DNA of 64,000 nucleotides from an uncultured Ignavibacteria bacterium (GCA_964461835.1 CAYWVO010000012.1:2478-66477), one strand, 5' to 3'. Positions 19,800-59,289 are shown, counted from the first letter of the stretch. The notes: generated by a model not told the origin, from the sequence alone. Translations and numbers: made by a program.

Positions 19800-19829
19800 A
19801 CAGTGATTACCCCGAGCAAGGCCGCCTCT

Positions 19830-21770: not shown

Positions 21771-21776
21771 GACGGT

Positions 21777-25130: not shown

Positions 25131-25156
25131 TGCTGGAATTCTGCTCCTTTCCGGTA

Positions 25157-42019: not shown

Positions 42020-42251
42020 TGGAAACTCCGGTTGACACCCCTGTTTTCGCCATTACAACAACTTACCGCAATTCACCTTCCTCACCGTTAACTGCAGTTT
42101 CCGACCTGCCAAAAACCCCGGGGGTTCGTCTCGGCGAACCTTCCCCATAACCTGCTGTCATTGCACTGCTTAGCCAGCTCTCCCCGCAGTTGGCATGGGG
42201 GTTGATATAACGTTCGCCAAATGAACAGATCTTGAACAAAAAGGAAGGAGC

Positions 42252-42539
42252 GTGATCATGGGTGATTTTCTGGCCTTTCGCCGGATGATAACCCCCTTCA
42301 TCATCCAGGCAATCTTCTGGATCGGGGTAGCGTTTAGTTTCATCGGCGGCATTGTCATCATTGTTCTTGCAGCAACCCAGAATTACATCGCGGTTGGTTT
42401 GCTGGTTGGTTTCGGCATGATGATCATTGGGCCGTTTGTGGCCCGAATTCAATGCGAGCTGCTCATTTTGTCGTTTCGCATTCACGATAATCTCGTGGAC
42501 ATCAACAGGAAAACCAAAGCGCAGGAAACTAATGCCTGA
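42252..42539 (+). CDS. small two-helix integral membrane protein (DUF4282-like)
   Basis: 95 aa: FIIQAIFWIGVAFSFIGGIVIIVLAA...AVGLLVGFGMMIIGPFVARIQ. First ORF after the two-component pair. Confidence 0.45.
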   Translation: MIMGDFLAFRRMITPFIIQAIFWIGVAFSFIGGIVIIVLAATQNYIAVGLLVGFGMMIIGPFVARIQCELLILSFRIHDNLVDINRKTKAQETNA

Positions 42540-42625
42540 TCATGGGATGTCCCAGCGGCATCGGGACGGACACAGGGGTTACTGCCAAATAAGAGGATGC
42601 ACCCAACCTTCATCGGAGGAAACAA

Positions 42626-44281
42626 ATGATTCGCATGATTGCTCTTTCAATCGGACTGACCATCGCTGTGATTTTCAACCTTACTGGCCGGGCGGGCGCC
42701 GAAGAATACGTACGCAAGGCGGTGACGGCGGTTGAGACGGTCGTCCTGACGTCTCCCAAAGTGAAACTCAATGCTCAACAAGACAGCCTGCTGCGTGAGG
42801 CCTTCAGTCGCTTCATCATGAAGGAATGCTATGATGAAGTACCGTTGCGCGCCAAAGACCAGGCCCAGATCCGGGCCCGTCTGGCCAACGAGGTCGTGAC
42901 GGTCGATGGTGGCGACGGGCAGCTCACTTCCATCATTAATGAATTGGTCGCACCTGCACTGGTCAAGGTTATGGAGGCGACGCTTAAGTGGCGCACGGAA
43001 AAAGACAATCCTCACTTCGACGAAGATACCTTCATTAGACTGAAAGCCAAGGACCTGGGCATCACGGTCGAGGATTTCGAACGGATGATGAAGTGCGGAT
43101 ACCTGTATGTACCCTTCCTGTCTGAGTTGAAAAGCTCAGGGTCCGGGAAGGACGCCAATTTTACTCTTAAAGGCGGTACGGTCTGGTACTATCTGGATAT
43201 CGATGCTAAACCAGACCCGGTCCTGGTATACCGAGCGAAGGTGAGTTCCACAGGCATGACTGGACTTTGGTCAAACTTCCTCAAAGATAAAAAACTCACG
43301 CCGGAGTCGGAAGCATTCTGCAGCGCAGCAAAACGACTGGCGGAGAATGTTTACGTAAAAAGCACCACGAAAATTCCTGATATCCGTCGAGCTTGCACTA
43401 TCACCGAAATCGTGGAAAACTCCCCCGGCTTCCGTTTAGGATTTCGAGAAGGTCTCATTCTTGACGATCGGTATGCCGTCATTGACCGTTATGAAGACCA
43501 GTCAGGGAACGAACACGAGAAACGTATCGGCTTTTTCATGGTGAAGCGCGTGACGGATAATCGAGATGATCGCACTAAACTTAGTTGGGGTAGACCAGTC
43601 ATCGGCAGCGGCAATATGGCAGAGGGCATGATGGTGCGGGAGATTCCTAAAACTGCGATCGATCTTTCGATCCGCACTACCTGGCGTCCGCTCGCGTTTG
43701 ACTCGCTGCGGGTTTCCAATCTCGGAACGACCTACTTCAGTCTGGAGGATACCACTTCCACGGGAGTCTTCACCATCGACGTCGATCTGCAAATGAATAT
43801 CGGGCGCAAGCTGGGGATATCACAGTTTTTCCTTGACCTCGGTGCCGGCTACGGGTACGCACCGGTAAAACTGAACCTGTTTGATAACACCGAAATCAAC
43901 CACGGCACATCCCTCGCCGTGCACGGAGGTCTGATGAAACGGATATACCTGGGACGCTCGGCCTTTGTGATCGGCGGGGATTTTGTTTTCGAGCGTCTCT
44001 CATTTAAGGAGAAAGTGAACAACACGGAATATATGCTCTATCGTGATTTCATCAGCGGCATCTTCCGTGCCGGATTCGATTATGCGCTCAGTTCGTCGCT
44101 TAATATCGGATTACGCGGCGGTTACACGATCGCTGAGAAAAGCGCTGACTGGAAGCTGAAAATAAACGACGAAAAGCCTGCATGGTACGAAGGCCAGGGC
44201 GTGGCGATTGACCATGACGGTCCCTACGCTTCGTTGGTCTTCAGTTATGCGCTACCGTCACTGTTCTGGTCACCCTTTTAG
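42626..44281 (+). CDS. secreted protein with periplasmic N-domain and C-terminal outer-membrane beta-barrel-like domain (terminal ...WSPF)
   Basis: Signal peptide MIRMIALSIGLTIAVIFNLTGRAGA. The C-terminal third shows an alternating hydrophobic pattern (GYAPVKLNLF, LAVHGGLMKRIYLG, FVIGGDFVFERLSF, ASLVFSYAL) and a terminal aromatic. Confidence 0.5.
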   Translation: MIRMIALSIGLTIAVIFNLTGRAGAEEYVRKAVTAVETVVLTSPKVKLNAQQDSLLREAFSRFIMKECYDEVPLRAKDQAQIRARLANEVVTVDGGDGQLTSIINELVAPALVKVMEATLKWRTEKDNPHFDEDTFIRLKAKDLGITVEDFERMMKCGYLYVPFLSELKSSGSGKDANFTLKGGTVWYYLDIDAKPDPVLVYRAKVSSTGMTGLWSNFLKDKKLTPESEAFCSAAKRLAENVYVKSTTKIPDIRRACTITEIVENSPGFRLGFREGLILDDRYAVIDRYEDQSGNEHEKRIGFFMVKRVTDNRDDRTKLSWGRPVIGSGNMAEGMMVREIPKTAIDLSIRTTWRPLAFDSLRVSNLGTTYFSLEDTTSTGVFTIDVDLQMNIGRKLGISQFFLDLGAGYGYAPVKLNLFDNTEINHGTSLAVHGGLMKRIYLGRSAFVIGGDFVFERLSFKEKVNNTEYMLYRDFISGIFRAGFDYALSSSLNIGLRGGYTIAEKSADWKLKINDEKPAWYEGQGVAIDHDGPYASLVFSYALPSLFWSPF

Positions 44282-44329
44282 TAGGCTGACCGTGACGATG
44301 CAATCGCTGAAGAATGCGCACAAGGAGAA

Positions 44330-45616
44330 GTGACCATGAGATTTTCAACACGATCCATCCTGCTGATACCGGTCATGCTGATTGGCCTGCCGCACGGCAC
44401 GGCGCTGGCGGATGACTGTACACCGCCGGTTTCCAAAGAAGTGAGTTACTTTGCGCCGAGCCCGGAAGTTGCGTCGGCAGTGGTGCTCAAAGTGTGGGGT
44501 ATCGGGGATGGCGGAAATGACCGGGAACGAAACAACAACGGGATTATTGACGCAAAAAAAGCTGCCTGCTGGCATGTCCTCTTTGCCGAACCCGACAATT
44601 TGCTGCGCACGCGTGACATGCGCCTGGCCTTCGAACCGTTGGCCGAATCATTCTGGTGCCTGGACACAATATCCAACTTCATCACTTCCGTGTCCCCCAT
44701 CCGCAAGTCGGTGCAGCATGGCCCGAAAGGAAAACAACGTAAGGTGCTGGTTGAGGCCGGTGTTAACATTGAGACGATCTCCACGTGGCTGGCCGATCAC
44801 AATATTGCCGTCACCCTGCAAACGCGCTATACCATCATGGTTCTGCCGTGGGTCCCGCGCGGTGAAAATCCGCTGGCCGAGCTGGAAGCAGACCCCAAGT
44901 TGCGCTCCGCGGCGAATGTTATCCAGCAGCATTTTCCGCCACACCGATACGAGGTAAAGAATCCCTCTGGAGAATTACGCCTCCAAGAAGTTATTAAAGC
45001 CACGGACCTGGTGGAGGACAACCCGGACGATTATCACTACCGGATTGCGCTTTCTCAGGGTGCGGATATTTACCTCACTTATGAGATTACAATCAACCCC
45101 CTGGAAGTCCACGGTCAGAAATTGCATCAAGCAGAAATGCGACTTGAGGCGTACGAAACCGCCACTGCCAAAATGTTGGGCACGCAAACCGGGTACAGTG
45201 ACCAACGTGCGAAAAGCGCCTCCGAACAAATGCTGATTGAAGAGGCCTTCGCCAAAGCTACGCACGCGCTCAAGGCCGGGATGCAGGAGTACTGGTTCGA
45301 CTGTCTCACACGAGGTACTCCCTTCCGCGTGGTTGTCAAACTCCCCGAAGACCTCGACCGGAGGGGATTTCGTGAGATCCAACGATGCTATGCCGGCGGA
45401 ATCGAATCGCTGTTTACAGATCACCGAGAAACGGCAACCACCCGTAGTGTGATGGATTTTATGATCTGGGCAAATCCGGAACAGTTTGCCAACCTGCGAA
45501 ACCTCGAAGACAAGATTTTGGATTGGATGGACGGCGAGTGCGCGGCGTGGACACTCGACATCCCCTACAGTATGGTCGGCAAGTTCTATCAGGGTGCAAT
45601 CGTTGCCAATGATTGA
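44330..45616 (+). CDS. secreted hypothetical protein
   Basis: Signal peptide MRFSTRSILLIPVMLIGLPHGTALA. 428 aa with no recognisable catalytic motif. Confidence 0.45.
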   Translation: MTMRFSTRSILLIPVMLIGLPHGTALADDCTPPVSKEVSYFAPSPEVASAVVLKVWGIGDGGNDRERNNNGIIDAKKAACWHVLFAEPDNLLRTRDMRLAFEPLAESFWCLDTISNFITSVSPIRKSVQHGPKGKQRKVLVEAGVNIETISTWLADHNIAVTLQTRYTIMVLPWVPRGENPLAELEADPKLRSAANVIQQHFPPHRYEVKNPSGELRLQEVIKATDLVEDNPDDYHYRIALSQGADIYLTYEITINPLEVHGQKLHQAEMRLEAYETATAKMLGTQTGYSDQRAKSASEQMLIEEAFAKATHALKAGMQEYWFDCLTRGTPFRVVVKLPEDLDRRGFREIQRCYAGGIESLFTDHRETATTRSVMDFMIWANPEQFANLRNLEDKILDWMDGECAAWTLDIPYSMVGKFYQGAIVAND

Positions 45617-45674
45617 TTTGACGACAGTGGGGGAATTGGCACTCAGCCTGGCAAAGGGCACATGAGATACGCAA

Positions 45675-46640
45675 ATGGTCTCAACATTTCCGGACAGCAA
45701 ACGGCAAGCAGTATCGAAGCGGTTTTTCTATCGCGTCGCTTGGTTCTCGCTGGTCGCGATGATTTCCGGCATTCCCTCATTGGCTCAGGCGGATCTCCCC
45801 TCGGACCAAGACCGGGCAGCTGCGTACACGCAGTCGTACGTCATCCTGCCGGCACAGGAGCGCGATCCACTCGCTGCACTCGACACCAACCAGGACCTCC
45901 GCGAGTGTGCGCAGGCACTCAATGAATTATTCTTGGAACGGGGGTTATACGTAATCGATCCGCGTGCCGGCTTCATGCTGGATGAACGTCTGCGGGCGAC
46001 GGGTATAATCGCCGAAAGAAGGTTGGCCGAAACAGAGGAGATATTCGCCTCGCGGTTGTTGGCCGATGTTGAAGTTCGCTTTTCCCTGAAGGAGGTACGT
46101 CGGGGAATACCCGCAAGTACCGGCCTAACCATCCAGGTAGATATTCAATGTCTCTCTCAGGACGGCCGCTTGATTACCGCGGATGCACTCGCCGGCGCCG
46201 GAGGCAGTAAGAGCAACAAATCGGTGACCATTCGTGCAGCCGCATATGCCGCCGGCCGTCGTTTGCTGAGCCGTTTGGCAGTGGCTGAAACAAGCACCGG
46301 ATCGCGACCGCTCACCTTGCGCGTAATTGTCCAGTTCTCAACTAAGGCAACAGATCGTCACCATGCCTGTCCGCGGCGAGCGCTGCTGGATGCGATGCAT
46401 GAAACCGCAGACCTGGTAAAAGAGAATATCATCACCGCCAAGACCATTGACTGTTGGATTTTCCTGAAAGAGAAGGAAAAAGACGGCGAGCATTGGTTGG
46501 CGAAAGTGATCGAGACCTTTGCCGAACGCTGTGATCAACCTGTGAAAGAAGTCCTTATGAAAGATAATCTCATCCTATTGAAAGTGATTGAGCCACAACC
46601 GAAGGGGATATCCCCGCCAACTAAGGAGGAAGAGAAATGA
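45675..46640 (+). CDS. secreted hypothetical protein (LPP20/CsgG-like periplasmic fold suspected, unproven)
   Basis: N-terminal hydrophobic segment ...FFYRVAWFSLVAMISGIPSLAQA. The Ala/Gly-rich segment ADALAGAGGSKSNKSVTIRAAAYAAGRRLLSRLA is reminiscent of LPP20-type lipoproteins. Confidence 0.4.
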   Translation: MVSTFPDSKRQAVSKRFFYRVAWFSLVAMISGIPSLAQADLPSDQDRAAAYTQSYVILPAQERDPLAALDTNQDLRECAQALNELFLERGLYVIDPRAGFMLDERLRATGIIAERRLAETEEIFASRLLADVEVRFSLKEVRRGIPASTGLTIQVDIQCLSQDGRLITADALAGAGGSKSNKSVTIRAAAYAAGRRLLSRLAVAETSTGSRPLTLRVIVQFSTKATDRHHACPRRALLDAMHETADLVKENIITAKTIDCWIFLKEKEKDGEHWLAKVIETFAERCDQPVKEVLMKDNLILLKVIEPQPKGISPPTKEEEK

Positions 46641-47962
46641 AACATATCTTCATCGCTGTTTTGTTACTTGCGCTGACGTGGTCGCCGGCGAGCGCCGATC
46701 GCTGGAATTCCATGCGGGTCAGCATCGAAGTCTCCGGTGTTAACGACGAACCCGCACCTGCGGTAGCAAAACGTCTGGCACGGGCGATGGATAAAATCGA
46801 TGTCATCGTTGAGGAAGGGTCAAGCCTGGTCTTACAGGGTGAGTTGGCAATCGAGCGTGAGCAAGAAATTCCCGGCGGATTCTCAGGATCCCAGTTTCTG
46901 GTTAATAACCGGCTCGATCTGGCCATCGTTGATCGCGAAACCGGCAACCGACTGGCTACCGCAGTTTTCTATGCAAAGGGCATGGACAACGACCGTGCGC
47001 GCGCTATCCGAGCCTCGTATCGGAAATTCACGTTTCCCAAGGACGAATTAGCCACATTCTACGACCGCGCTCAGCAACGGTTGATCAAGGTCATGGAAGA
47101 AGCCAACGCCTCCCTCCTGGAGGAGGGTGAGGCACTGTACGGCAGAAAGAAACGCGATCAAGCACTGAACGTGCTGGCCTCGATTGATAAATCTTCCGCC
47201 AGTTATCCCGCGGCCCGGTCACTTATCGACAAAATCAAAGAAGAACAGTGGGTGATTTGGCAGGACTCTCTCGAACATGAGCGAAAGATGATGGAAGAAA
47301 CGACCAGGCAGGATTCCATTCGCGTTGATTCTCTTCGCCAGGAAAAGGAGAAGGCGTTAGCGGAGGCGCAAAAGGTGTCTGATTCCCTCGCAATCGTCAA
47401 GGCGGTGGGAGACAGCATCAAAGCCTCATTAGAAATCGAACGTTCGGAAACTGAACACCAGCGACTCCAGGTGGCATTGAAACAGGCGGAAGCGAAAGCA
47501 GAAAGCCTGCGCATTATTCGCAACCTTGTCGAGCAGCAATCCAATCAGATAATCCGGGAGCAGAAGAAGGCCGAGCAGGAGCGCAAGAAAAACCGCGACA
47601 CCATCTCTTCTCTGACCGACCTCATTACCGGAGGCGTGGCCAAATTGTCCGACTCCATGGCCCGGTTTCTAGGTCGGAAGAATATCGAACTTCCAGAAGA
47701 ATTGGTTGGTCAATGGCAGTCCAGTGATTGCAGCATCGATATCCGTAGCAACGGCGATTTCACGATGAATACGCCATCTGAACCCAAATATATTCACGGG
47801 TACGTGGCTGTGGTGAAGGATGGTATCATGGTTTTGTGTGCGGAGAATCAGGATATCGACGAAAAAAACAAAAACTGGCAGGTTCGTTATAAAATTGAGC
47901 GGTCGGGTTCGCTTGTGATTGCGGCCGCCAGCGGATTCGTGCGACATTTCGTGCGGGGGTAA
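46637..47962 (+). CDS. secreted coiled-coil protein
   Basis: Signal peptide MKHIFIAVLLLALTWSPASA. Central ~170 aa are heptad-rich (EEQWVIWQDSLEHERKMMEETTRQDS...LRIIRNLVEQQSNQIIREQKKAEQERKK). 4-nt overlap with the upstream gene. Confidence 0.45.
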   Translation: MKHIFIAVLLLALTWSPASADRWNSMRVSIEVSGVNDEPAPAVAKRLARAMDKIDVIVEEGSSLVLQGELAIEREQEIPGGFSGSQFLVNNRLDLAIVDRETGNRLATAVFYAKGMDNDRARAIRASYRKFTFPKDELATFYDRAQQRLIKVMEEANASLLEEGEALYGRKKRDQALNVLASIDKSSASYPAARSLIDKIKEEQWVIWQDSLEHERKMMEETTRQDSIRVDSLRQEKEKALAEAQKVSDSLAIVKAVGDSIKASLEIERSETEHQRLQVALKQAEAKAESLRIIRNLVEQQSNQIIREQKKAEQERKKNRDTISSLTDLITGGVAKLSDSMARFLGRKNIELPEELVGQWQSSDCSIDIRSNGDFTMNTPSEPKYIHGYVAVVKDGIMVLCAENQDIDEKNKNWQVRYKIERSGSLVIAAASGFVRHFVRG

Positions 47963-47997: not shown

Positions 47998-48645
47998 ATG
48001 ACGAAAGGTCCTAAACATTCAGACGATACCCCGTCCCCCTCTGCAACAGAGCAACCAGATGCAGTCAGGTCCGAGTCTGCTGAACCGCAAGACACCACCT
48101 CTGATGGGAACGGAGTAACAGCCGGAGATTTGCTCGCAGCGATTCATGCCTTGGATCAGCGGCTCTCCGAACACCTGGCGGCGACCGCGCGGTGCAATCA
48201 GACTGCGTTTGATCGTCTCTACGAGGAAATGGAACAGTACAAAAACAATTTCCTGCTGGAGATTCAACGGGGACTGCTAATCGATATTATGTTGTTGTAT
48301 GACGGAGTGCACAAGTGCCTCATGCATTACCATCAGACAGATTCAATCGATCGCAATGCGCTTGTAGGAAATCTCGAAGGATTGCTGGTCGAAACCGAAG
48401 AAATCCTGGCTCGCCGGGATATCCTGCCTATGACCGAACCGCACGCAAAACTGGATCGCACAACCCAAAAGGCGGTCAAGTCTATTCACACGACCGATCC
48501 CGGCGAAGACCTGACAATTGTGGATAAAATGCGAACGGGTTTTCTCATCGGTAAACGCGTGTTCCGGCGGGAAGAGGTAGTCATCAAGAAATATATCCCG
48601 GATGAAGGTTCGGGTTCTCTCAAAATCAGTAACGAGGATGAGTGA
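47998..48645 (+). CDS. GrpE-like nucleotide-exchange factor (divergent)
   Basis: A low-complexity acidic N-terminus is followed by a helical region and a C-terminal beta-domain (LTIVDKMRTGFLIGKRVFRREEVVIKKY) resembling GrpE's 'GY..G.R.LRPA.V.V' tail. Confidence 0.5.
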   Translation: MTKGPKHSDDTPSPSATEQPDAVRSESAEPQDTTSDGNGVTAGDLLAAIHALDQRLSEHLAATARCNQTAFDRLYEEMEQYKNNFLLEIQRGLLIDIMLLYDGVHKCLMHYHQTDSIDRNALVGNLEGLLVETEEILARRDILPMTEPHAKLDRTTQKAVKSIHTTDPGEDLTIVDKMRTGFLIGKRVFRREEVVIKKYIPDEGSGSLKISNEDE

Positions 48646-48700
48646 ATGCCAAATTGTCAAGTTGCTGAGGTAATCTCATAGGTCAACGAGGAGGAAAAAC

Positions 48701-50260
48701 ATGAACAATACCGCTGGTAACAAAATTGTTGGGATTGACCTGGGAACGACGTTCTCGGCGATTTCCCATATCAATGAACACGGAAAACCGGAAACCATTC
48801 TCAACAACGATGGCACTCCCACGACACCATCCGCAGTTTTATTCGAGAGTGCCGACAATATTGTTGTCGGCCAATTGGCGCGCGACAGTGCGGTGAGTTC
48901 TCCCCACAATGTGGTCACACTCGTCAAACGGGAAATGGGCCGCGATACGAAATTCGACCCTGCCGACCAGGAATTTACCCCGGAAGAAATCTCAGCGATG
49001 ATTCTGCGCAAACTCAAACAAGATGCAGAGAGCAGACTGGGCATGCCAATCACCCAGGCGGTGATCACGGTGCCGGCGTATTTCGGAACCGCAGAACGTA
49101 AGGCGACCGAGGACGCCGGTGAGATGGCGGGGCTTACGGTCGCGCATATCCTTAACGAACCGACTGCCGCCGCACTGGCATTTGGTTTGGCCAACCCTGA
49201 CCGTGAGCAGACGTTGCTCGTGTATGACCTCGGCGGCGGCACCTTCGACATCACCCTGTTGAAAATTCGTCCGCCGGCAAACGGCTCGTTGCCGGACGTG
49301 GAGATGATCTCCACCGGTGGTAATCATGATTTGGGTGGCGTCAACTGGGACGAGCGAATCATCGACTACGTTGCCGAGCAGTTCGCCGAACAACACGGAT
49401 CCGACCCGCGGGACAATCTGGCCAGCAAACAGGATTTGTACATTCGCTGCGAAAAGGCGAAGATTGCCCTGGCTAAGGTGGCTAAGACGCGCATTGCCTG
49501 CCAACACGATGGTCAAACCGTGGTGGTCGAATTGGATCGCGGCAAACTTGATGAATTGACCGCCGATTTACTCCAACTCACTGTCGACGAGATGGATCAG
49601 CTGTTGGCCGATAAGGGCGTTGCTCCAGAGAGTGTCGACCAGGTAATCTGCGCCGGCGGATCAACACGGCTGTTAACCGTACGCGAAATGCTTCAACGGC
49701 GATTCCCCGGCAAGGTCAACACCGCCATTGACCCGGATCAGTGTGTGGCGCAGGGAGCTGCGTGGATGGGACATCTCATTGCGGCGACAAAGGATGGAAG
49801 TGGCGAAACGATAACGGTCACCGACGTTGCTCCGCATGCCTTGGGGGTTGCGGCGCTTAATGAAGCGAAAGAACTGCGTATCTATCCCCTTATCCCCAAA
49901 GACACTCAGTTGCCTTGTGGAAGTAAAGACACTTTCTACACCTCAGATGGCAATCAAACCGGGGTGGAAATTAAGGTCTATGAAAACGAGGTGCGTTCCA
50001 AACAGGAGGTCACCGACCTCTCAGCCGGACAGATGATCGGCGAGGCAATTTACTTATCCGGTCTCCCCGGTGGCCGCCCTCCCGGTCAGCCTATCGAAGT
50101 GACGTTCAGTTTTGATGCCAGTTTCCGGCTGGGAGTAACCGCAGTCGATGTGAACACCGGCACGACAATTAATGCCGAATTCGTGCTGGGCTCCAGACTT
50201 GACACTGTGCAAAAGGAAAATACGGCCAAAATGTTGGCAGATACAGAAATTCAAAGTTGA
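48701..50260 (+). CDS. Hsp70-family ATPase with nucleotide-binding domain and beta-sandwich substrate domain but no alpha-helical lid (HscC-like, non-canonical)
   Basis: IVGIDLGTTFSAISHI (phosphate-1), AVITVPAYFGTAERKATEDAG, LLVYDLGGGTFDITLL, VICAGGSTRLLTVREML. 519 aa versus ~640 for DnaK. The canonical GIDLGTTNSCVAV/DnaK lid is absent. Confidence 0.8.
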   Translation: MNNTAGNKIVGIDLGTTFSAISHINEHGKPETILNNDGTPTTPSAVLFESADNIVVGQLARDSAVSSPHNVVTLVKREMGRDTKFDPADQEFTPEEISAMILRKLKQDAESRLGMPITQAVITVPAYFGTAERKATEDAGEMAGLTVAHILNEPTAAALAFGLANPDREQTLLVYDLGGGTFDITLLKIRPPANGSLPDVEMISTGGNHDLGGVNWDERIIDYVAEQFAEQHGSDPRDNLASKQDLYIRCEKAKIALAKVAKTRIACQHDGQTVVVELDRGKLDELTADLLQLTVDEMDQLLADKGVAPESVDQVICAGGSTRLLTVREMLQRRFPGKVNTAIDPDQCVAQGAAWMGHLIAATKDGSGETITVTDVAPHALGVAALNEAKELRIYPLIPKDTQLPCGSKDTFYTSDGNQTGVEIKVYENEVRSKQEVTDLSAGQMIGEAIYLSGLPGGRPPGQPIEVTFSFDASFRLGVTAVDVNTGTTINAEFVLGSRLDTVQKENTAKMLADTEIQS

Positions 50261-50314
50261 TCGCTGAGGGTTGAGCTCGCGAAGGCGTACCCGCCAGGGG
50301 AGGATTATACAAAG

Positions 50315-51532
50315 ATGACGAAGGGCTCGGTTCCAAGAGATAGATTATATAAAAAGTTGGGCATCCCGGAGCGACGCAACGACCCGACGCTACCGGATAA
50401 AAATTACTTCTACTTGCTCGGGATAAATGAGGATCAGGATGATCACGAGGTAGCCGCGCAGGTCGGGCAGGCCTATGCCAAGCGCATGCAGGACTTTAAA
50501 ACATACGGCCACATCGATCGCTCTGAAGCAGGACGACTCCAGAAGGAATGCACAAAGGCGAAGCGAGCGCTGAGCGATCCACAACTGCTGGACGCCCACC
50601 GTCAGATGGTGCGCCATCTCCGTCTGGACGATTTCGCGACGGAAGCAGAGCGGCTGCACCAGGGCGCGGTCACAGAAGAACACGCCGCCACGATTCTCAA
50701 ACAAAGCGCCGCTACCTACGGATTTCCTGCATCAGAAGTGGATCAGGTCGTGAAGGACCTTCTGGAAAGATTCGGGTCTTGGGCGGTGAGCCAGGAGGTG
50801 GTGTCCCATCCCCTGCCCCGCTGGCTATGGATCTCGCTGCCGGTAGTTTTCTTCGGGGCCTTGGTTTCGCACGGTCTACTGGCCTTCCTTTCTCTGACTG
50901 CACTGGCAATCGGTCTGTTGCAATCAATCAGGTTGCGCAGTGGCGGATATGCTGCCTGGGGATTCACGTCCTTCTTTTTTGGGCTTTTGTGCTTCATGGT
51001 GTTTGACTTCTCTGTGCCTCCGGCGTCAGTCAACGGCGGGCATAACGACGGGTTTTTCAATCCACAATCTGCTCCTGTCGGCGGAGCAAAAGGGACCGAG
51101 GCGGGCCCGCTATCTCTGGCTGCGGGGGACTATTCCGGATGGCAGATGGAGGGGTCCGCATTCGGCACCGCGCCGGTATCCGAGACAATCGAAGGTGACA
51201 TGATGCACTTTGCCGATTCCTTCAAACCGACCCAGAGCGACAACGCGACGGGGCGATTAACCTCCGGTTCGTTTGTCATCGAATATCGGCGGCTCCGCTT
51301 TCTGATTGCGGGCGGGAAATATCCCGGACGATGCTGTGTGAATCTTGTGGCCAACGGTGATGTCCAGCGAACCGCGACCGGAAGCGCCGACAGAGAACTG
51401 CGGGAAGTCGTCTGGGATCTCACTGATCTGATCGGGCAGACGGCACATATTGAAATCCTGGATATTGTAGGTTCTACAAATCCCTTCGCCCCCGGTTGGA
51501 TTCGGGCGGGAGAGTTTACGTTTCTCCAGTAG
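50315..51532 (+). CDS. membrane-anchored J-domain-like protein (HPD replaced by H-I-D) with two TM helices and a C-terminal jelly-roll/lectin-like domain
   Basis: NYFYLLGINEDQDDHEVAAQVGQAYAKRMQDFKTYGHIDRSEAGRLQKECTKAKRALSD aligns to the J-domain helices II-III. TM: WLWISLPVVFFGALVSHGLLAFLSL and FTSFFFGLLCFMVFDF. The C-terminus SGWQMEGSAFG...FVIEYRRLRFLIAGG...GWIRAGEFTF is beta-rich. Confidence 0.5.
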   Translation: MTKGSVPRDRLYKKLGIPERRNDPTLPDKNYFYLLGINEDQDDHEVAAQVGQAYAKRMQDFKTYGHIDRSEAGRLQKECTKAKRALSDPQLLDAHRQMVRHLRLDDFATEAERLHQGAVTEEHAATILKQSAATYGFPASEVDQVVKDLLERFGSWAVSQEVVSHPLPRWLWISLPVVFFGALVSHGLLAFLSLTALAIGLLQSIRLRSGGYAAWGFTSFFFGLLCFMVFDFSVPPASVNGGHNDGFFNPQSAPVGGAKGTEAGPLSLAAGDYSGWQMEGSAFGTAPVSETIEGDMMHFADSFKPTQSDNATGRLTSGSFVIEYRRLRFLIAGGKYPGRCCVNLVANGDVQRTATGSADRELREVVWDLTDLIGQTAHIEILDIVGSTNPFAPGWIRAGEFTFLQ

Positions 51533-51711: not shown

Positions 51712-51985
51712 CTACTTCAGCAGCAGCATCTTGCGGGAGTCCGTAAACTCTCCTGCTTGTAAACGATAGAAGTACACGCCGCTGGGATTTTCTGCTGCCT
51801 CCCAGACCGTGCTGTAATTGCCGGCCGGGAGTTGTCGGTCTAATACCGTCTCCACCAGTTGTCCCCGGACATTGAAGACCTCCAGCGTGACTCGCGATGC
51901 CTTCGCCAATCTGAAGTGAATCCGCGTTGAAGGGTTAAACGGATTGGGGGTATTCTGGCGCAGGGAGAACTCAATGGGGAGTGTA
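51712..51985 (-). other. T9SS type-A C-terminal sorting domain (Por_Secre_tail-like)
   Basis: The 'NPFNPST', 'L.V.N..G..V' and 'GVYFY.L' motifs read directly in the last ~90 aa of the ORF. Confidence 0.65.
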
Positions 51986-53682
51986 CCTTCCTCACTGATC
52001 ACACCAGTGATCTGATCGATGGTCACGTGGGCGGTCGCCTGTAAACTCCCGGAGGAATCCTCTGCCGACACCGTGAACTCGCCCAGCGTGGGGCCGGCCT
52101 CGTATATACCGTCTTCGCTAATAGTACCACCCGTGGCGCTCCACGTTGGGGTGAACGCCATTACCCCACCCACTTGATCGATTCCTTCAGCAAAAAACGC
52201 AACAATAGCTCCGGGATCGATGGTGACCGAATCAGGCACAACATGAATAGCGGCAAGAGTCGGTTGATACGCCATCACGAGTGTAACCGCGGTGTCCGCC
52301 CGGTTCGGATCGGACACCGATTCGCACGCGGCCGTTAGGCTCGAACCGGTCAGATCGCCGGCACCGGGTGGAATCGAAAGGACGACTTCGACCAGACCGG
52401 GATCGCTGCCGGTCAGTGCTACGGTAGCAGATGCGGGCGAACTCAGCCACCCTTGTGAATCAGAGAGGTCAATATCGACAGTGGCGGTGGATCCTGACCA
52501 GTCTCGCACGGCAACCATAATCGTATCAACCGTGCCAAGGGTGAAGAAGAGTGTGTCGGCGCCAAAGCTTGCCGTCAGAGCCGGCACCTCATCAAGCCAT
52601 TCACTCACCTGCACACCGCTGGAGATCGGATCGCCGCTGCCCGTACCTTCACCGGAAGGTTCGTCAATCGCACCCCACCAGTTGCCCTCAGCAGCAACAC
52701 TACCCGCACCCCCATTGGCGATACCGAAATCAGTGTTGCCCGAAACGATACTGCCCTCGACAACAAGCGGTCCATCGAGGTTCCACATGATGCCGGGCCC
52801 CGCATTATCGGTAATTGCCGCTCCACGGATCTCGGATTCGTCACCAATGGCGAAATCGAGCGTTTCAGACTGGGGAAAGGCGGCACTAATTCCCTGCGCG
52901 CTATCTTCCCGCGGTTTCCCCAGGAGACCACCCAGGCCATTCGTGCACAGCGTTACGGCGCCAAGCTCCAAAATGCCGCCTTCTTCATTTTCATAAAAAT
53001 AGTTACGTTCCGCCGGATCCGCGCCCCCGATCACGTTTGCCTTGCTGTAGTTCATATTCAAGCCCCACTTATTACCGTGGAACGTACACCCCTCCACGAC
53101 GCTCGTGTTACTATTGTTATGCAAAAGCGCCAGCGCGGAATTGGTGAAATTCCGGAACTCAATGTTGCGGATTTCATGGCCACCGCTCGAGAAGACTAAT
53201 CTGGAGACATTGGGCGTGCCGAGACCGTCCAGCACGACATTGGTCGACCCATCTATCTGGCCGTCGATAATCACGGGTGCGGAGATATTGGGAAAAAAGT
53301 TGGTCGTTTTGGAGATCACCGACGCCGACGCCGCGAAACGTATTTCCGTCAGCCCCCCTGAGTAGTTGGCATTCTCAATTGCCGCACGCAAGGTCGGGTG
53401 GAAGAAAATACCGTCATCCAGATTGGTATCGGGGAGATCACTGGGGTCAGTAATAACATAGGTATCCACGGGCGTACGGCCGTCCAAGTGCTCGGGCCGG
53501 CTCAGCATCGCCAGCGCTCGTTTGCTCACACTAGTGGTCGTTTTTGTTTTTTGCGGGGGTTCGGCCTCAGCCGAGGATGACGCACCTCCCAGTGAAGCAC
53601 AGATCATCAGTACTGCTATCGTCATAGGCTTAACGTGCGACCACACAACTGACCTCCAACCGTTTACCGTCGCCTGAATCAA
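51712..53682 (-). CDS. T9SS-sorted secreted protein: right-handed parallel beta-helix repeats plus Big_2 Ig-like domain plus C-terminal Por sorting domain
   Basis: Signal peptide present. Repeats: ...NNSNTSVVEGCTFHGNKWGLNM.... Big_2: VHVVPDSVTIDPGAIVAFFAEGIDQVGG. C-terminus: LRQNTPNPFNPSTRIHFRLAKASRVTLEVFNVRGQLV...GVYFYRLQAGEFTDSRKMLLLK. Confidence 0.7.
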   Translation of the reverse strand: MIQATVNGWRSVVWSHVKPMTIAVLMICASLGGASSSAEAEPPQKTKTTTSVSKRALAMLSRPEHLDGRTPVDTYVITDPSDLPDTNLDDGIFFHPTLRAAIENANYSGGLTEIRFAASASVISKTTNFFPNISAPVIIDGQIDGSTNVVLDGLGTPNVSRLVFSSGGHEIRNIEFRNFTNSALALLHNNSNTSVVEGCTFHGNKWGLNMNYSKANVIGGADPAERNYFYENEEGGILELGAVTLCTNGLGGLLGKPREDSAQGISAAFPQSETLDFAIGDESEIRGAAITDNAGPGIMWNLDGPLVVEGSIVSGNTDFGIANGGAGSVAAEGNWWGAIDEPSGEGTGSGDPISSGVQVSEWLDEVPALTASFGADTLFFTLGTVDTIMVAVRDWSGSTATVDIDLSDSQGWLSSPASATVALTGSDPGLVEVVLSIPPGAGDLTGSSLTAACESVSDPNRADTAVTLVMAYQPTLAAIHVVPDSVTIDPGAIVAFFAEGIDQVGGVMAFTPTWSATGGTISEDGIYEAGPTLGEFTVSAEDSSGSLQATAHVTIDQITGVISEEGTLPIEFSLRQNTPNPFNPSTRIHFRLAKASRVTLEVFNVRGQLVETVLDRQLPAGNYSTVWEAAENPSGVYFYRLQAGEFTDSRKMLLLK

Positions 53683-53849: not shown

Positions 53850-55829
53850 CTAAAATCCGAATTCTTCATTGCGACCATCGGACGCAGCAGGATCACTGCT
53901 CCCGGCGACAAGATGTCCACTTGGTTGAGAGTAGCGGCGAGATTGGTGGCACGTCCCGCATTCCGCCAGATGCGCGTGATCGGCGGTATCCTGCTTCTGC
54001 TGATGGCAGGGAATGCAGATGCGGTGCATCGCCACACCGAATGAGGAGGCATACATCAAATTGACCGTGCTGTCCGGCTGTCCGATCAACCACATATCCT
54101 CTTGGTGGCAGGAGTAACACGTGTGGGCGTTCTGCCCGGTCTTAGGTCCCGGCGCGGGATGGCATTCTCGACATGAATGATTTTCCGGATGCAAGCCGGA
54201 AACATCCGCTGTTTCCGCTACCGCTGCAATATGGAACGTGTGATCGAAAATTTTCGTGGGATAGGCCATGTGACGATGACAGCGCGAACACGGCGTGGAT
54301 CGGTCATGAGGCAGTGATACATGATGACAATGCGCGCAGGCGGTATCGCCCCCCAGCCGCCGTTGGTGGTCTTTGTGGGCGAAAATGGTGGCTACGCCGC
54401 CCCGATCACCGTCGATCAGCAAGGTATCCCGTTGGACATCCAACCCAAATGCCGGCTGAATTGGTGTTTCGCCATCATATGGATTTTGATAGCCGGGATA
54501 CAGTATCGCCCAACTGAATGGAACCGTGAAGACTGCAATCAACGTAACCCGGCGCAAACCATCGGTGAATACCGTGTGCCAGACATGGGAAATCTTGTCG
54601 AACGAGGGCACAAACATCCTGACCAAGCTACGTCGGTCGCGGGAAAACTCCGTCATAATCGGCAGGTTTTCCACCGCGAACATGAAGATCAACCCGGCGG
54701 CGGCCACCACGCCGACACATAATACCCACTCGATCAGGGACGGGAAATAAACTGTGCCCGCATCACGAAAATACCCAAAGATGCCCACCGACAGTCGGTT
54801 GAGCGCTAACCCGGAGGCCGCAGCAAACGAAGTCCAGCCAAGGCCACTCGGTGAACGACGAACGCGCGGAATGCTCATCAAAACGACCGGGAGGATTGCG
54901 GTGAGTCCCAATTCTGCCAGATAGAGCCAACTTTCCCACGTCCCGGCGATGAGTGTACCCCAAGCGCCGGTGCGGAACAGATCAAAAATCTTCAGGCCGA
55001 GATACACCCCCAGTACGCCCGCAGCAATGGAGGCCAGGGAGCTCAGCATCGGCATCTCTTTCCCTGGCACTCGCTTGGGCTTTCGCTCGGCATCTTGCGG
55101 GTTGATCACACAGGCAGTGCTCTCCGACACTGGACCGAACACGGAGACAGGATCGTACAGTCGCGCATACAAGATTTTAATCAGGATGATGGTCATCATC
55201 CCGGCGCCCATCGCAGAAATAATGAATAACAACGGCAGCAACGAAGTGTACCACAATGGATGCAACCGTTGCGGGGTAACCAGGAACAGCGAACCCAGCG
55301 AGGAATGGTGCAAGCCGGATAAAGAGATCCCAAAGACCACGATGCCAAAGGCAATTCCCTCCAGCCAGTGGAATATTTTACTGCTCCCCCACCGTTGGCC
55401 AACCGTGGGCACAATTTCCAGCATCGTAACCGTGAAATACAGCGCAACACACCAAAAGACTTCGAAGAGAAAGGAATTTTCATTCCACATCACAAAGGGA
55501 TGCCAGAACCGATGCGGTAGCCCGATATCAAACAGCAGCGCAAACAGCGAGGATCCATAGCCCAGGAACGCCACCAGGACCGCCATTCGGACCAGCGGCT
55601 TAAAACGTTTCAGTTGCAGAACATAGACGAGAATGCCCAACGTAAAGCCACCCGTGGAGAGCGCCACGCCGGCGACCATATTGAGGATTTTCCAAAGTCC
55701 CCACGGTACATCATCGCTGAGATTCGTGGTCGCGCCAAGCCCAAACCACAACCGGAAAATGGCGGCGAAGAGTCCCCAAAACACCAAAAACCAGAGGATA
55801 TCTTTGATTAATCGTCGTCTGCCTTCCAT
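53850..55829 (-). CDS. NrfD/PsrC/DsrP-like polytopic membrane subunit fused to a C-terminal hexaheme cytochrome c domain
   Basis: ~10 predicted TM helices over ~480 aa. Six CxxCH motifs then follow in ~150 aa: CAHCH, CSRCH, CRECH, CYSCH, CIPCH, CGTCH. Confidence 0.7.
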   Translation of the reverse strand: MEGRRRLIKDILWFLVFWGLFAAIFRLWFGLGATTNLSDDVPWGLWKILNMVAGVALSTGGFTLGILVYVLQLKRFKPLVRMAVLVAFLGYGSSLFALLFDIGLPHRFWHPFVMWNENSFLFEVFWCVALYFTVTMLEIVPTVGQRWGSSKIFHWLEGIAFGIVVFGISLSGLHHSSLGSLFLVTPQRLHPLWYTSLLPLLFIISAMGAGMMTIILIKILYARLYDPVSVFGPVSESTACVINPQDAERKPKRVPGKEMPMLSSLASIAAGVLGVYLGLKIFDLFRTGAWGTLIAGTWESWLYLAELGLTAILPVVLMSIPRVRRSPSGLGWTSFAAASGLALNRLSVGIFGYFRDAGTVYFPSLIEWVLCVGVVAAAGLIFMFAVENLPIMTEFSRDRRSLVRMFVPSFDKISHVWHTVFTDGLRRVTLIAVFTVPFSWAILYPGYQNPYDGETPIQPAFGLDVQRDTLLIDGDRGGVATIFAHKDHQRRLGGDTACAHCHHVSLPHDRSTPCSRCHRHMAYPTKIFDHTFHIAAVAETADVSGLHPENHSCRECHPAPGPKTGQNAHTCYSCHQEDMWLIGQPDSTVNLMYASSFGVAMHRICIPCHQQKQDTADHAHLAECGTCHQSRRYSQPSGHLVAGSSDPAASDGRNEEFGF

Positions 55830-56620
55830 TCCGCCGGATCCTTCTCTTTGTGCTCTTGCTGTGACCGATTAGTTGACTGTTTCTCCCGGTCGATGGTCAT
55901 GCGCCGTCGAATAATCCAGTTGACCCCCAACAGGCCGGCAGCCACGGTCAAGCCGATAAAGGGAGTTTTGTGTACGAGTGGCTCGGTAAGTGATGGAATC
56001 GGCGGTTGGTCTTGTTCCGGCCACCCCAAGGCACTCAGGTCAACGTCAGAAATATAAAGAACCGACGTACCGCCAAACTCATGTTCTCCCCAGATGTGCT
56101 GCTGATATGTATGTGGTTCGGTGCGCAGTCGACTCTTGGCTTGTTTGAGCAACGTGCGCCGATTGCCATACACCAGCGCCTGGTTAGGGCAGGTAGCCAC
56201 GCAGGCCGGCGGTAGATCGTCCTCCAGCCGTTCAAAGCACATAGCGCACTTCCTGACCAGCGGTGTAGTAGAACCCCATTCATACCGCGGAATATGAAAT
56301 GGGCAGGCCAGCATACAGTAGCGACAGCCAATGCATTTATCGGGATCATACACCACCGGTCCCTCCGGCGATTTGGTCATGCCCCCGACCAGGCACGCCG
56401 AGACGCAACTCGGCTCCAGGCAATGCATGCAGCTTTTGCGCGCAAATCGGCCGTCTGCAACCAGCACCAAGGAAAGAAATCGATTATCGGAAAGACCGTC
56501 CCGGGAAGTCAGGCGATCGAGATCGGCTTTGTCTTGATCCAGGTTGTTCGCCGTAATGCAGGCGGCGACGCATTTCTCACAACCGGTGCATTTGGTGACA
56601 TCGACCAGGATTGCTTGCAC
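55808..56620 (-). CDS. 4Fe-4S ferredoxin-type electron-transfer subunit (DsrO/HmcB/HybA/PsrB-like) with C-terminal TM anchor
   Basis: Four Cys clusters (CTGCEKCVAAC, CMHCLEPSCVSAC, CIGCRYCMLACP, CAMC...CVATCP). The C-terminal hydrophobic helix is FIGLTVAAGLLGVNWII. Confidence 0.75.
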   Translation of the reverse strand: MQAILVDVTKCTGCEKCVAACITANNLDQDKADLDRLTSRDGLSDNRFLSLVLVADGRFARKSCMHCLEPSCVSACLVGGMTKSPEGPVVYDPDKCIGCRYCMLACPFHIPRYEWGSTTPLVRKCAMCFERLEDDLPPACVATCPNQALVYGNRRTLLKQAKSRLRTEPHTYQQHIWGEHEFGGTSVLYISDVDLSALGWPEQDQPPIPSLTEPLVHKTPFIGLTVAAGLLGVNWIIRRRMTIDREKQSTNRSQQEHKEKDPAEWKADDD

Positions 56621-57318
56621 TAGACCCGTGCCTCCTTCCCGAACAACGCCTCGGCAACCTTATCGCCCGCGCCGGGTCGCAATTGCCAGTGAACCGCCGA
56701 AATGCGATCGAAGAAATACAATACGATGTGGGCCAGCTTCGTGAACGGAATCAACACGAACAGGACCTCGGCGCTTAACAGGTGGATCAAAAACATCGCG
56801 TTCCACGGCAACGGATTGGCCGACGGATGGGCTGCCAGGTACCCTGAGGCAAACGGCAGGAGCACCATAATCAGAAGAATGTAGTCGATCGGCCGGCTCA
56901 TGGCGCGAATCCGCCTGATGAACATCCGGTGCCCCACCAACACAATCAGGCAGCCGATGGTGCCCAACGTTAACCAGTCGGCCAGGTCCTGCCCGATAGC
57001 CGGCAGGTTGACCCCGAGGAATTCCTCCCACAAGACGATATGAGCCGCCAGAAAAATCGGTACGATCAGGATACCGATATGGAACAGGAACGACACCGTG
57101 GAAAAAACCCGCGTGCCGCGAATAAAATGCTTGAAGGGAACAGCCCACGTGACCGTTTCTTTAATAATGTCCCGCCAGGGAGCATTCCGCAGGCGTCGCC
57201 CTTTATGCACCAACAGGGTGTACATTTGAATTATGACGAGGCGCAACAGGCCCAAGAGCATAATCAAAAAGGTGATGGCAAAGAGTGGGCCTTTGGCGAA
57301 TTCAATCCATGTGTCCAC
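56620..57318 (-). CDS. NarI/DsrM/HdrE-like integral membrane b-type cytochrome
   Basis: 232 aa, 5-6 TM helices, conserved His in helices 2 and 5 (FHIGILIVPIFLAAH; FLIHLL). 1-nt stop/start overlap with the FeS gene. Confidence 0.65.
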   Translation of the reverse strand: MDTWIEFAKGPLFAITFLIMLLGLLRLVIIQMYTLLVHKGRRLRNAPWRDIIKETVTWAVPFKHFIRGTRVFSTVSFLFHIGILIVPIFLAAHIVLWEEFLGVNLPAIGQDLADWLTLGTIGCLIVLVGHRMFIRRIRAMSRPIDYILLIMVLLPFASGYLAAHPSANPLPWNAMFLIHLLSAEVLFVLIPFTKLAHIVLYFFDRISAVHWQLRPGAGDKVAEALFGKEARV

Positions 57319-57367
57319 AACCGTTCCCTCAGTCCGTGATCATCTGTTCGCGTCATTCCGGTCCCGT

Positions 57368-58807: not shown

Positions 58808-59289
58808 CTGCTTTCTCCATGCCCGATTTTTAGTCCGGTTTTTCGAAGTGGCAAAGACTGTACCGAACCGCAATTGCAATTGGCAAAACTGGCTGCCCGG
58901 TAATGCAGGATGGATCCTGGGAAGAGAAGATCGTCAAATCCTTTACTTATTATAGACAATGTGACACTTGATGTGAATGTTACCGGGAATAGTTATGACA
59001 TGACTGTTTTGGAGATGACACACTGGTCGTTACCACCGGGCAATGATTGTTGCAGGTGTTGCAACGAAATGTCGCATCGCAACATCGCATGCAATAGGTT
59101 GTACTACATGCGACGCCAATGCTGCGACGCCGCTAGTTAATGTTATGAGCACGGGGTCGCTGAATAACTAGCCGGTGGAACAATACATTCTTCGCATGCG
59201 AAATCGCGCGGGTTGGCTATACCGTGAAACCCGATATTATCTGCCAACTTGTCAATCAGTTGTGTCTGGCCGGTGCTTTGCGCACCGGT

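Follow-up and report, generated by a model that had tools for sequence, protein, structure and literature searches.

A lidless Hsp70 encoded between GrpE-like and membrane J-like proteins in an uncultured Ignavibacteria bacterium: a reduced form of a recurrent bacterial cassette

A 64,000-nt stretch of DNA from an uncultured Ignavibacteria bacterium (GCA_964461835.1 CAYWVO010000012.1:2478-66477; hereafter the window) carries three consecutive plus-strand genes that encode a GrpE-like protein (47998-48645, 215 aa), a lidless Hsp70 (48701-50260, 519 aa), and a membrane J-like protein (50315-51532, 405 aa). Our analysis revealed that this trio is a reduced form of a recurrent cassette composed of VWA, ABC-FtsX, Hsp70-VWA, GrpE, lidless Hsp70, and J-like genes, that the loss of the helical lid is shared by the whole Hsp70 clade, and that the N-terminus of the J-like protein is predicted to adopt a J fold bearing H-I-D at the position of the canonical His-Pro-Asp (HPD). 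We consider it moderately probable that the three proteins form an Hsp70 machine that is orthogonal, recruited to the membrane, and equipped with an altered J trigger, probably separate from the housekeeping DnaK. A first-pass annotation of the same DNA had proposed a grpE-dnaK-dnaJ order in which no member is the housekeeping version, and the open reading frames bear out the proposed layout to the nucleotide, with intergenic gaps of 55 nt (GrpE-like/Hsp70) and 54 nt (Hsp70/J-like) and a GGAGG-type ribosome-binding site (RBS) ahead of all three genes. When domain boundaries were examined with Pfam, HSP70 and GrpE were matched and the J-like protein was left without a DnaJ match.

A lidless Hsp70 with altered trigger residues

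The 519-aa protein is matched by Pfam HSP70 (PF00012; E 3.7e-114, profile 1-515 of 599) and is the only Hsp70-family member found in the window. The exclusion of a housekeeping identity is supported by NCBIfam, in which both DnaK models fell below their cut-offs (TIGR02350, 393.7 vs 822.55 bits; PRK00290, 392 vs 648 bits). A beta-sandwich substrate domain is present and aligns to the beta-sandwich substrate-binding domain (SBD-beta) of DnaK, with a 4-residue insertion in loop L1,2. In alignment A9, which combines the protein with its 16 nearest relatives, a broader set of Hsp70s of 508-547 residues, and four canonical DnaKs, the ATPase motifs DLGTT, K76, E153 (NEP), DLGGGTFD, and GGSTR were invariant or nearly so across the clade. 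The Pfam match and these alignments thus confirm that the ATPase motifs and the beta-sandwich are retained, as had been claimed, but not that the glycine loop differs: DLGGGTFD is identical to that of DnaK, and the difference consists of an insertion just after it together with the replacement of Arg167 by His.

Alignments to DnaK structures in the PDB end at about DnaK residue 507-514. Some 25 residues follow the last beta strand, ending in ...LADTEIQS, whereas canonical DnaKs run about 100 helical residues further, so that both the helical lid (SBD-alpha) and the disordered C-terminal tail of DnaK proper are missing. The same C-terminal end point and conserved tail are found in all 16 closest homologues and in a wider lidless group of 523-547 residues, and an identical sequence was recovered from two independent assemblies. 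Because the two assemblies agree and the whole clade ends alike, the loss of the lid is a clade-wide trait and not a sequencing error. A frameshift or base-calling error that might have hidden a normal lid was considered and ruled out on these grounds, and the earlier description of the protein as lidless is borne out. The conserved tail, encoded at 50186-50257, carries in all clade members the motif L-x-D-[TS]-E-[IV]-[QKE]-S (the penultimate position also written x); one speculative role for the tail is that of a docking site for a partner protein (with TPR or VWA domains, for instance), comparable to EEVD in eukaryotic Hsp70s. One lidless Hsp70 clade (L008:10001-11767; P0010-P0018) carries an insertion of about 57 residues in subdomain IIB of the nucleotide-binding domain (NBD), with a 'GLGF...' helical motif resembling the 'YGFP' module of the J-like protein described below.

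Alterations were also evident at the residues through which DnaK responds to its J-protein. In alignment A9, the position of DnaK Arg167 is occupied by His149 (codon 49145..49147, +; 'VAHILNEPT' vs 'VLRIINEPT' in DnaK), and a clade-specific insertion, RPPANGSLPD (49268..49297, +), lies in the beta-hairpin of subdomain IIA just after DLGGGTFD, at residues 190-199, with a length of 8-10 residues. The interdomain linker reads ITVTDVAP (49811..49834, +) where DnaK has VLLLDVTP, so that the Asp is retained and the hydrophobic leucines are gone. Both Arg167 and the hydrophobic VLLL linker are therefore missing from this Hsp70. In DnaK, Arg167 pairs with linker Asp393 and with Asp481 of the substrate-binding domain and is targeted by the Asp of the HPD, and both Arg167 and the hydrophobic linker are required for J-stimulated hydrolysis (PMC7289447). 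Helix II of the J-domain contacts the beta-sheet region of subdomain IIA, and R167H is a classical suppressor of DnaJ D35N (PMC7289447).

A membrane J-like protein with H-I-D in place of HPD

Neither Pfam (including DnaJ, PF00226, at E up to 1) nor NCBIfam matched the 405-aa J-like protein. Its N-terminal part contains a J-domain-like four-helix module (residues 28-116; 50396..50662, +) with H-I-D at residues 66-68 (nt 50510-50518) between two long helices, so that the invariant J-domain His-Pro-Asp is not found, as the first-pass annotation had noted. No Pfam domain corresponding to a G/F region, a Zn-finger, or the DnaJ C-terminal client-binding domains was detected, again in agreement with the annotation as regards the Zn-finger and C-domains. 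Instead, the J-like module is followed by a two-helix 'YGFP' module (residues 121-152; 50675..50770, +), conserved in the family with G136 invariant, and then by transmembrane (TM) helices and a jelly-roll-like domain.

The family proved to be very small. An exhaustive phmmer search with residues 1-160 against 1.84 billion representatives returned 11 proteins; a word-indexed homologue search retrieved only the protein itself and a GH32 enzyme, and the same type of search with the family alignment retrieved one protein. Family members share a conserved N-terminal module of about 160 residues, a Pro/Gly-rich spacer, and a hydrophobic block of 30-45 residues that often has a central His-Pro or His-Gly (a charged RDHPN turn in one member), after which there are usually a basic loop, one more TM helix, and a C-terminal domain that varies among members. 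Residues 7-27 (50333-50395) carry the family-conserved pattern 'RLYxKLGI....DPTxPD', basic and hydrophobic like an Hsp70-binding peptide, and this stretch may act as an internal pseudo-substrate.

An AF2 model of residues 1-170, built on the 11-sequence alignment, reached a pLDDT of 90.8 and a pTM of 0.78, with helices at 7-15, 31-35, 43-64, 69-87, 89-116, 121-135, and 139-152. In this model, G-H-I-D (residues 65-68) forms the loop joining the two long helices, which is the HPD position of J-domains, and the structural matches include the J-domain proteins DNAJB8, ERdj5, HscB, DnaJ2, and Zuotin. Comparison of the family profile with ten canonical J-domains gave an hhalign probability of 86.7% with HID aligned to HPD. 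On the strength of the model and the profile match, we accept a J fold for the N-terminus, and the supposition that this region folds as a J-domain is upheld by the prediction.

The H-x-D pattern is missing from 6 of the 11 family representatives. The sub-clade of the window comprises five representatives at 30-37% pairwise identity (56% for one pair), all five of which have 'Y-[GA]-H-I-D-R', and HIDR is the longest invariant run of the domain among them. Because the run is invariant against so low a background identity, it points to a functional H-I-D loop in this sub-clade, and 'degenerate' appears too strong a word for this gene. The earlier reasoning from a degenerate HPD to a non-stimulating recruiter accordingly fits the wider HPD-less family but sits less well with the present protein, in which H and D are kept and HIDR does not vary.

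The membrane region (residues 170-235; 50822..51019, +), delimited from the hydropathy of all 11 family members, opens with a hydrophobic block of 36 residues that has a His at its centre; the basic loop RLRSGG and a third helix follow. The block exceeds the length of one helix (36 residues here and up to 45 in relatives) and has a polar or charged turn in its middle; members that lack an ectodomain have this block only. A helical hairpin followed by a third helix would give an N-in/C-out topology with an extracytoplasmic C-terminal domain. Thus, the protein is membrane-embedded as claimed, with three TM helices more likely than the two first counted.

The C-terminal domain (51020..51529, +) is all-beta and probably a jelly roll of the carbohydrate-binding kind, about 135-170 residues in length. 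It shares 36% identity over 149 residues (pairwise E 1e-19) with a module located N-terminal to the catalytic domain of P0002, a secreted GH32 enzyme whose N-terminal hydrophobic leader ends in Cys, consistent with export. The AF2 model of the ectodomain, built from two sequences only, is all-beta but poor (pLDDT 52), and the carbohydrate-binding modules found as fold matches come from this low-confidence model. The domain is therefore best described as a probably periplasmic, glycan-binding-like beta-jelly-roll, for which the label 'lectin-like' is plausible; the length of about 170 residues given earlier is the upper end of our estimate. A link between the system and envelope glycans may be envisaged on this basis. 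Most relatives have a different ectodomain, in one case with weak similarity, below the threshold, to the F5/8 type C (discoidin) domain.

A dedicated GrpE-like protein

The 215-aa protein is matched by Pfam GrpE (PF01025) at 30.5 bits against a cut-off of 25.8 (profile 37-165 of 165) and falls far below the cut-offs of the NCBIfam GrpE equivalogs. With the profile of the GrpE-like group, Geobacillus GrpE (4ANI) was the sole PDB match and aligned end to end. GrpE-like genes that precede lidless Hsp70s at other loci encode proteins 37-47% identical to it. An S/T/P-rich acidic head (residues 1-46; 9 D/E, 3 K/R, and 17 S/T/P) is followed by the GrpE helix/bundle and beta domain, so the acidic head described in the first-pass annotation is real, and the GrpE assignment stands above the Pfam cut-off.

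The trio as a reduced form of a recurrent cassette

The order GrpE-like, lidless Hsp70, J-like recurs in more than 10 unrelated metagenomic loci. All contigs that contain the closest Hsp70 homologues have a GrpE-like gene, a lidless Hsp70 gene, and a gene for a J-like membrane protein in succession, as confirmed by tblastn (37-45% identity for the GrpE-like genes, 43-64% for the Hsp70 genes, and 24-39% for the J-like genes in this first set). A metagenome scan with the GrpE-like alignment added 17 further loci. The three genes occur together in L003/4, L005, L006/7, L008, L009, L013, L015/16, L019, and L030, and their conservation across many unrelated contigs answers the question of whether they would be found together in related genomes. 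A scan of genome contigs with the Hsp70 yielded only a pair of loci, each of which has a full-length Hsp70 gene (643-646 aa); one of them (L011) is the canonical Desulfogranum grpE-dnaK locus.

In every scan locus with upstream DNA, the GrpE-like gene is immediately preceded by an Hsp70-VWA fusion, in which the NBD and beta-sandwich are followed by a VWA domain at the position of the lid (680 aa at L003:3640-5685). This fusion is found upstream in L003, L006-L009, L013, L015-L019, and L021-L030, that is, in nearly every related locus. It is often joined by a stand-alone VWA protein, an ABC-FtsX fusion, and a 380-aa protein without a Pfam match, the last present once or twice, and the longer contigs read VWA, ABC-FtsX, 380-aa protein, Hsp70-VWA, GrpE, lidless Hsp70, J-like. 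Judged from these gene orders, the cassette bearing Hsp70-VWA looks like the full form of the system, of which the window trio is a reduced form; the 64-kb window contains no VWA, second Hsp70, canonical GrpE, or DnaJ J-domain.

At L021, L025, and L028, the protein that follows the lidless Hsp70 is recognized by Pfam DnaJ (45, 51.6, and 40.1 bits, respectively, against a threshold of 27.8), and these J-domains have IIE, DDT, and NTS at the HPD site. The hhalign probabilities between the family profile (A2) and J-like modules of distant loci were 1.2% (A12) and 0.8% (A13), which are not significant, and 64% (A5), which is weak; the kinship of the window's J-like family with these HPD-less, Pfam-positive J-domains rests on shared gene position and not on sequence. 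At L010 (9280-21596), a GrpE gene and the gene for a 531-aa lidless Hsp70 precede a tandem series of seven paralogues that end in FGE-sulfatase or WD40 domains, all with an HPD-less J-like N-terminus and 'GGRPRxDG' in the loop, an arrangement that resembles a set of adaptors serving one Hsp70. Behind one lidless Hsp70 of L003 lies a tandem pair of J-like membrane genes (L003:8074-8949 and L003:9106-11730), both with HID; one product lacks an ectodomain, and the other (874 aa) has weak, sub-threshold matches to BON and DUF3823.

Across the system, the Arg167 position holds H, Y, E, Q, K, M, or N, with Arg in one clade only, where N170 and T173 are replaced, and the interdomain linker is degenerate across the cassette Hsp70s. 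Since the J-partners lack HPD, the Arg167 position varies, and the linker is degenerate, comparison of these sequences indicates that loss of the canonical HPD/Arg167/linker trigger is a property of the whole system, within which the HID/His149 pair of the window appears to be the member closest to the canonical state. A rule by which HID would co-occur with N170 and T173 in the Hsp70 was considered and rejected, as the HID protein P0132 pairs with P0006, an Hsp70 with Y, K, and V at positions 167, 170, and 173.

Upstream genes

Five co-oriented genes with RBSs (42252..47962, +), spaced by 35-87 nt or overlapping, precede the trio. They encode a DUF4282 membrane protein (42252-42539, +) and four proteins with Sec-type signal peptides whose A-x-A sites were read from the sequence: a 551-aa protein (42626-44281, +), a 428-aa DUF6175 protein (44330-45616, +), a 321-aa protein (45675-46640, +), and a 441-aa protein (46637-47962, +). 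One of the four has a weak outer-membrane beta-barrel match; PDB sequence searches with all four gave nothing usable, and no mention of DUF6175 was found in the literature. Given these short spacings and the lack of any conspicuous terminator, a single transcript with the trio is likely; scans for sigma-70 promoters and terminators were at chance level.

Further upstream, Pfam identified a histidine kinase (38236-40674, +) and a sigma-54-type response regulator (40667-42019, +) as possible regulators. A weak sigma-54-like -24/-12 site at 42191-42206 (+; TGGCATGGGGGTTGAT), in which the -12 GC is replaced by GA, is situated downstream of this sigma-54 activator gene, with 45 nt separating it from the leading gene of the putative operon; in the sigma-54 scan, in which this was the one weak site noted, matches were no commoner than chance and their count was below expectation. 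Homologues of the upstream genes were found beside the trio at other loci for none of the five genes, and a metagenome scan with the DUF6175 protein returned no relatives. Since the upstream proteins are missing at other loci of the trio and the DUF6175 protein lacks relatives, the envelope link is taken as unproven and the membership of these genes in the Hsp70 system as uncertain. The proposed co-transcription with envelope proteins is thus likely in the window, but it is not conserved elsewhere.

Proposed mechanism

Lid-truncated DnaK is characterized by fast client exchange, and the same is expected of a lidless Hsp70. Having the complete ATPase core and the beta-sandwich pocket while lacking the helical lid, the 519-aa protein would therefore bind and release clients quickly, and the GrpE-like protein would serve as its own nucleotide-exchange factor, recycling it. 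The divergent J-domain, as the cytosolic N-terminus of the membrane protein, would dock the Hsp70 on the cytoplasmic face of the inner membrane. The trigger is changed on both sides, from HPD to HID in the J-like protein, and by Arg167 to His, the IIA-hairpin insertion, and the loss of the linker leucines in the Hsp70. The insertion and the changed crevice may make the partners mutually specific and probably insulate them from the housekeeping DnaK/DnaJ. In this scheme, the J-like domain would act primarily as a specific recruiter, and the HIDR loop in the window's sub-clade would probably still modulate ATP hydrolysis in a co-evolved manner. The suggestion of a specialised, membrane-targeted Hsp70 machine made in the first-pass annotation is therefore retained as regards a dedicated non-housekeeping set with a membrane-embedded, predicted J-fold partner, but its envelope link is not conserved.

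Several observations weigh against this interpretation. The Hsp70-VWA, VWA, and ABC-FtsX partners, almost constant at other loci, are missing from the window, and its trio might be a remnant or work differently; because the locus of P0005 (Hsp70 58% identical) likewise has no Hsp70-VWA gene, however, the minimal trio is not unique to the window. The J fold consists of a predicted model and the hhalign match, in a protein that Pfam DnaJ does not recognize, the ectodomain model is of low confidence, and the N-in/C-out topology is read from hydropathy. Most family members lack H-x-D, so the system can evidently work without it, and for this reason HID may serve another purpose. Finally, as the P0132 pair illustrates, HID and the Hsp70 crevice show no simple co-variation.

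Alternative explanations

The J-like domain might instead be a pure recruiter or brake similar to Pam16, binding the Hsp70 without stimulating hydrolysis and tethering it or holding it inactive, while hydrolysis is intrinsic or client-driven. This possibility, which we consider doubtful though worth retaining, is in line with the absence of HPD from most family members and from the Pfam-positive J-domains at distant loci, and with the system-wide degeneration of Arg167 and the hydrophobic linker, which are needed for J-stimulated hydrolysis (PMC7289447). Two features of the window's sub-clade are harder to reconcile with it: H, D, and the following R are invariant at about 35% background identity, which would be odd for a functionless loop, and His at the Arg167 site is just the change by which, in E. 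coli, function is regained alongside a mutated HPD (R167H/D35N; PMC7289447). An artefact or gene decay, in which a truncated dnaK pseudogene happens to lie beside a chance J-like ORF, would account for the missing Pfam match of the J-like protein, yet it is extremely improbable in view of two identical assemblies, strong RBSs on all three genes, a clade-wide truncation point and C-terminal motif, a confident J-like model with J-domain matches, and the conserved gene order.

Other alternatives concern what the machine would be for. A role in conflict, defence, or stress sensing would make it a threshold switch driven by nucleoside triphosphates (NTP), as in vWA/chaperone systems, with the outward domains sensing an invader or envelope damage. 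The VWA, Hsp70-VWA, ABC-FtsX, and PP2C phosphatase genes at related loci, a CHAT-ClpB-like giant protein beside one of them, the wide variation of the C-terminal domains of J-like proteins, and the L010 array of seven paralogues fused to FGE-sulfatase or WD40 would all be compatible with such a role, and FGS domains are discussed as direct binders of invader molecules by Kaur et al. 2020 (PMC7159879). We nonetheless judge it unlikely, as PADLOC-DB 2.0 matched none of seven proteins, the window has no VWA, ABC, or phosphatase partner and no effector domain, its neighbouring genes are metabolic and envelope genes, and the Hsp70-GrpE-DnaJ theme of that paper is tied to GAP1-N2 GTPases, which are not seen here (PMC7159879). 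Less probable again is an export or assembly chaperone, with the J-like protein bringing the Hsp70 to the translocon so that the four upstream secreted proteins are kept unfolded before export or aided in their assembly. The shared strand, the short gaps or overlap with no terminator signal above chance, the Sec-type signal peptides of all four proteins, and the weak barrel match of one of them would agree with this function; conversely, these proteins occur beside the trio at no other locus, relatives of the DUF6175 protein were not recovered by the metagenome scan, and the trio is conserved without them, which makes the association appear lineage-specific or coincidental. A membrane-recruited Hsp70 machine with an altered J trigger thus remains our preferred reading.

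Comparison with known Hsp70 systems and significance

In the textbook Hsp70 cycle, ATP hydrolysis is fired when HPD acts on Arg167 and the linker, the client is trapped under the lid, and GrpE resets the machine. The trio shares with the housekeeping GrpE-DnaK-DnaJ system its gene order, the ATPase motifs, the beta-sandwich, a GrpE-type factor, and a J-fold loop between helices II and III. It differs from that system in an Hsp70 that has no lid, His for Arg167, the IIA insertion, ITVTD for VLLLD, and scores far below the DnaK cut-offs, and in a J-protein that has HID, lacks the G/F, Zn-finger, and C-terminal client domains, and is an integral membrane protein. The E. coli DjlA, an inner-membrane J-protein that acts with DnaK in capsule regulation, ties Hsp70 to the envelope as the J-like protein of the window may do, but it has an N-terminal anchor, a C-terminal canonical HPD J-domain, and no ectodomain, and it works with the housekeeping DnaK. 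The mitochondrial import motor, with Pam18, the HPD-less Pam16, mtHsp70, and the GrpE homologue Mge1, likewise combines a membrane-tethered J or J-like protein with an Hsp70 and a GrpE-type factor, and its HPD-less J fold is a regulator or tether. It differs in belonging to a eukaryotic organelle and in having a full-length Hsp70 on the side that receives the imported protein. Pam16 and Pam18 are described as presequence translocase regulators (PMC11349236).

Three prokaryotic Hsp70 types, DnaK, HscA, and HscC, are distinguished in a 2021 review by Mayer (PMC8215388). E. coli HscC with DjlC/DjlB resembles the present system in combining a specialised Hsp70 with its own J-proteins, for which a membrane-localised role was proposed (Kluck et al. 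2002, as cited in PMC8215388), and HscC likewise carries an inserted segment in loop L1,2 of SBD-beta together with an altered loop close to the J-binding site (PMC8215388). DjlB and DjlC are listed among HPE J-proteins (PMC10410713), so that a variant signature is common to them and the J-like protein of the window. HscC, however, keeps a shortened lid, measures 550-580 residues, lacks the GrpE signature, and is considered to work independently of GrpE (PMC8215388), whereas here the lid is entirely absent and a dedicated GrpE gene adjoins both in the window and at every related locus. Membership of the HscC group was rejected, given the absence of an HscC model among the NCBIfam matches of the 519-aa protein, the missing lid, and the adjacent GrpE-like gene; the kinship 'in idea' with HscC/DjlC suggested earlier survives as an analogy, qualified by the shortened lid and GrpE independence of HscC (PMC8215388).

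The Hsp70-GrpE-DnaJ/FNIII theme of Kaur et al. 2020 also joins a non-housekeeping Hsp70 to a GrpE and a J-domain fusion, sometimes with a second Hsp70 that lacks the peptide-binding domain, but it is linked to GAP1-N2 GTPases, actinobacteria/firmicutes, and FNIII repeats, none of which applies to the window, and its accessible part makes no mention of Hsp70-VWA or a lidless Hsp70 (PMC7159879). Truncated or modified DnaKs in complex bacteria are a further point of similarity, reported for prokaryotic DnaK derivatives (PMC13580251) and for Hsp70 paralogues of Myxococcus (PMC8265645). Both papers suggest that such paralogues assist canonical DnaK; the accessible parts of these papers contain no dedicated GrpE with an HPD-less J-partner and no Hsp70-VWA cassette. 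Many truncated DnaK derivatives are described as unexplored 'dark matter' and proposed to be DnaK co-chaperones in a 2026 review (PMC13580251). A large J-domain survey dropped sequences without a full HPD from its curated set and analysed HPE-like variants apart (PMC10410713), and because of this exclusion the J-like family would have been hidden from it. In the literature searched, the coverage of which was incomplete, no description of the Hsp70-VWA/GrpE/lidless Hsp70/HPD-less J cassette was found.

What emerges is a conserved family that keeps the ATPase, the substrate pocket, and GrpE while dropping the lid and, in most members, the HPD/Arg167/linker trigger. If such machines are active, they would reveal which parts of the Hsp70 cycle are dispensable and would offer a natural Hsp70/J pair, probably insulated from the housekeeping system, for use in mechanism studies and engineering. 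The combination of H-I-D with His149 is reminiscent of R167H, the classical suppressor of DnaJ D35N. Through their neighbours (Hsp70-VWA, ABC-FtsX, and membrane J-like genes), the 'dark matter' of bacterial DnaK paralogues also becomes approachable by gene context. A bolder and rather improbable extension would see here a class of bacterial Hsp70 machines that lack the HPD trigger, Arg167/hydrophobic linker, and lid, all three regarded as essential to the cycle, and in which the variable outward domain of a transmembrane J-like protein controls from the cell exterior the place and time of client engagement by the cytosolic Hsp70, as a form of transmembrane signalling, with the HID version being an intermediate that has a partial trigger.

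Other genes in the window

A 2042-aa protein with Peptidase_C25 (gingipain-like) and MAM-like domains is encoded at 5074-11202 (+). It is followed at 11261-27142 (-) by an alpha-glucan gene cluster that includes a GH77 4-alpha-glucanotransferase, several GH13 proteins, a GH57 protein with DUF3536, a branching-enzyme-like protein, a TreS-maltokinase fusion (21777-25130), and GlgE (25157-27142). The gene at 51712-53682 (-), which converges on the J-like gene, encodes a beta-helix protein whose C-terminus is a T9SS sorting domain (Por_Secre_tail); together with the C25 peptidase, this domain suggests an organism of the FCB group. Beyond it lies a membrane redox module (53850-58879, -) in which an NrfD-like protein carries a fused multihaem cytochrome c domain; the module also includes 4Fe-4S, NarI-like, and CCG/Fer4 (Hdr-like) proteins.

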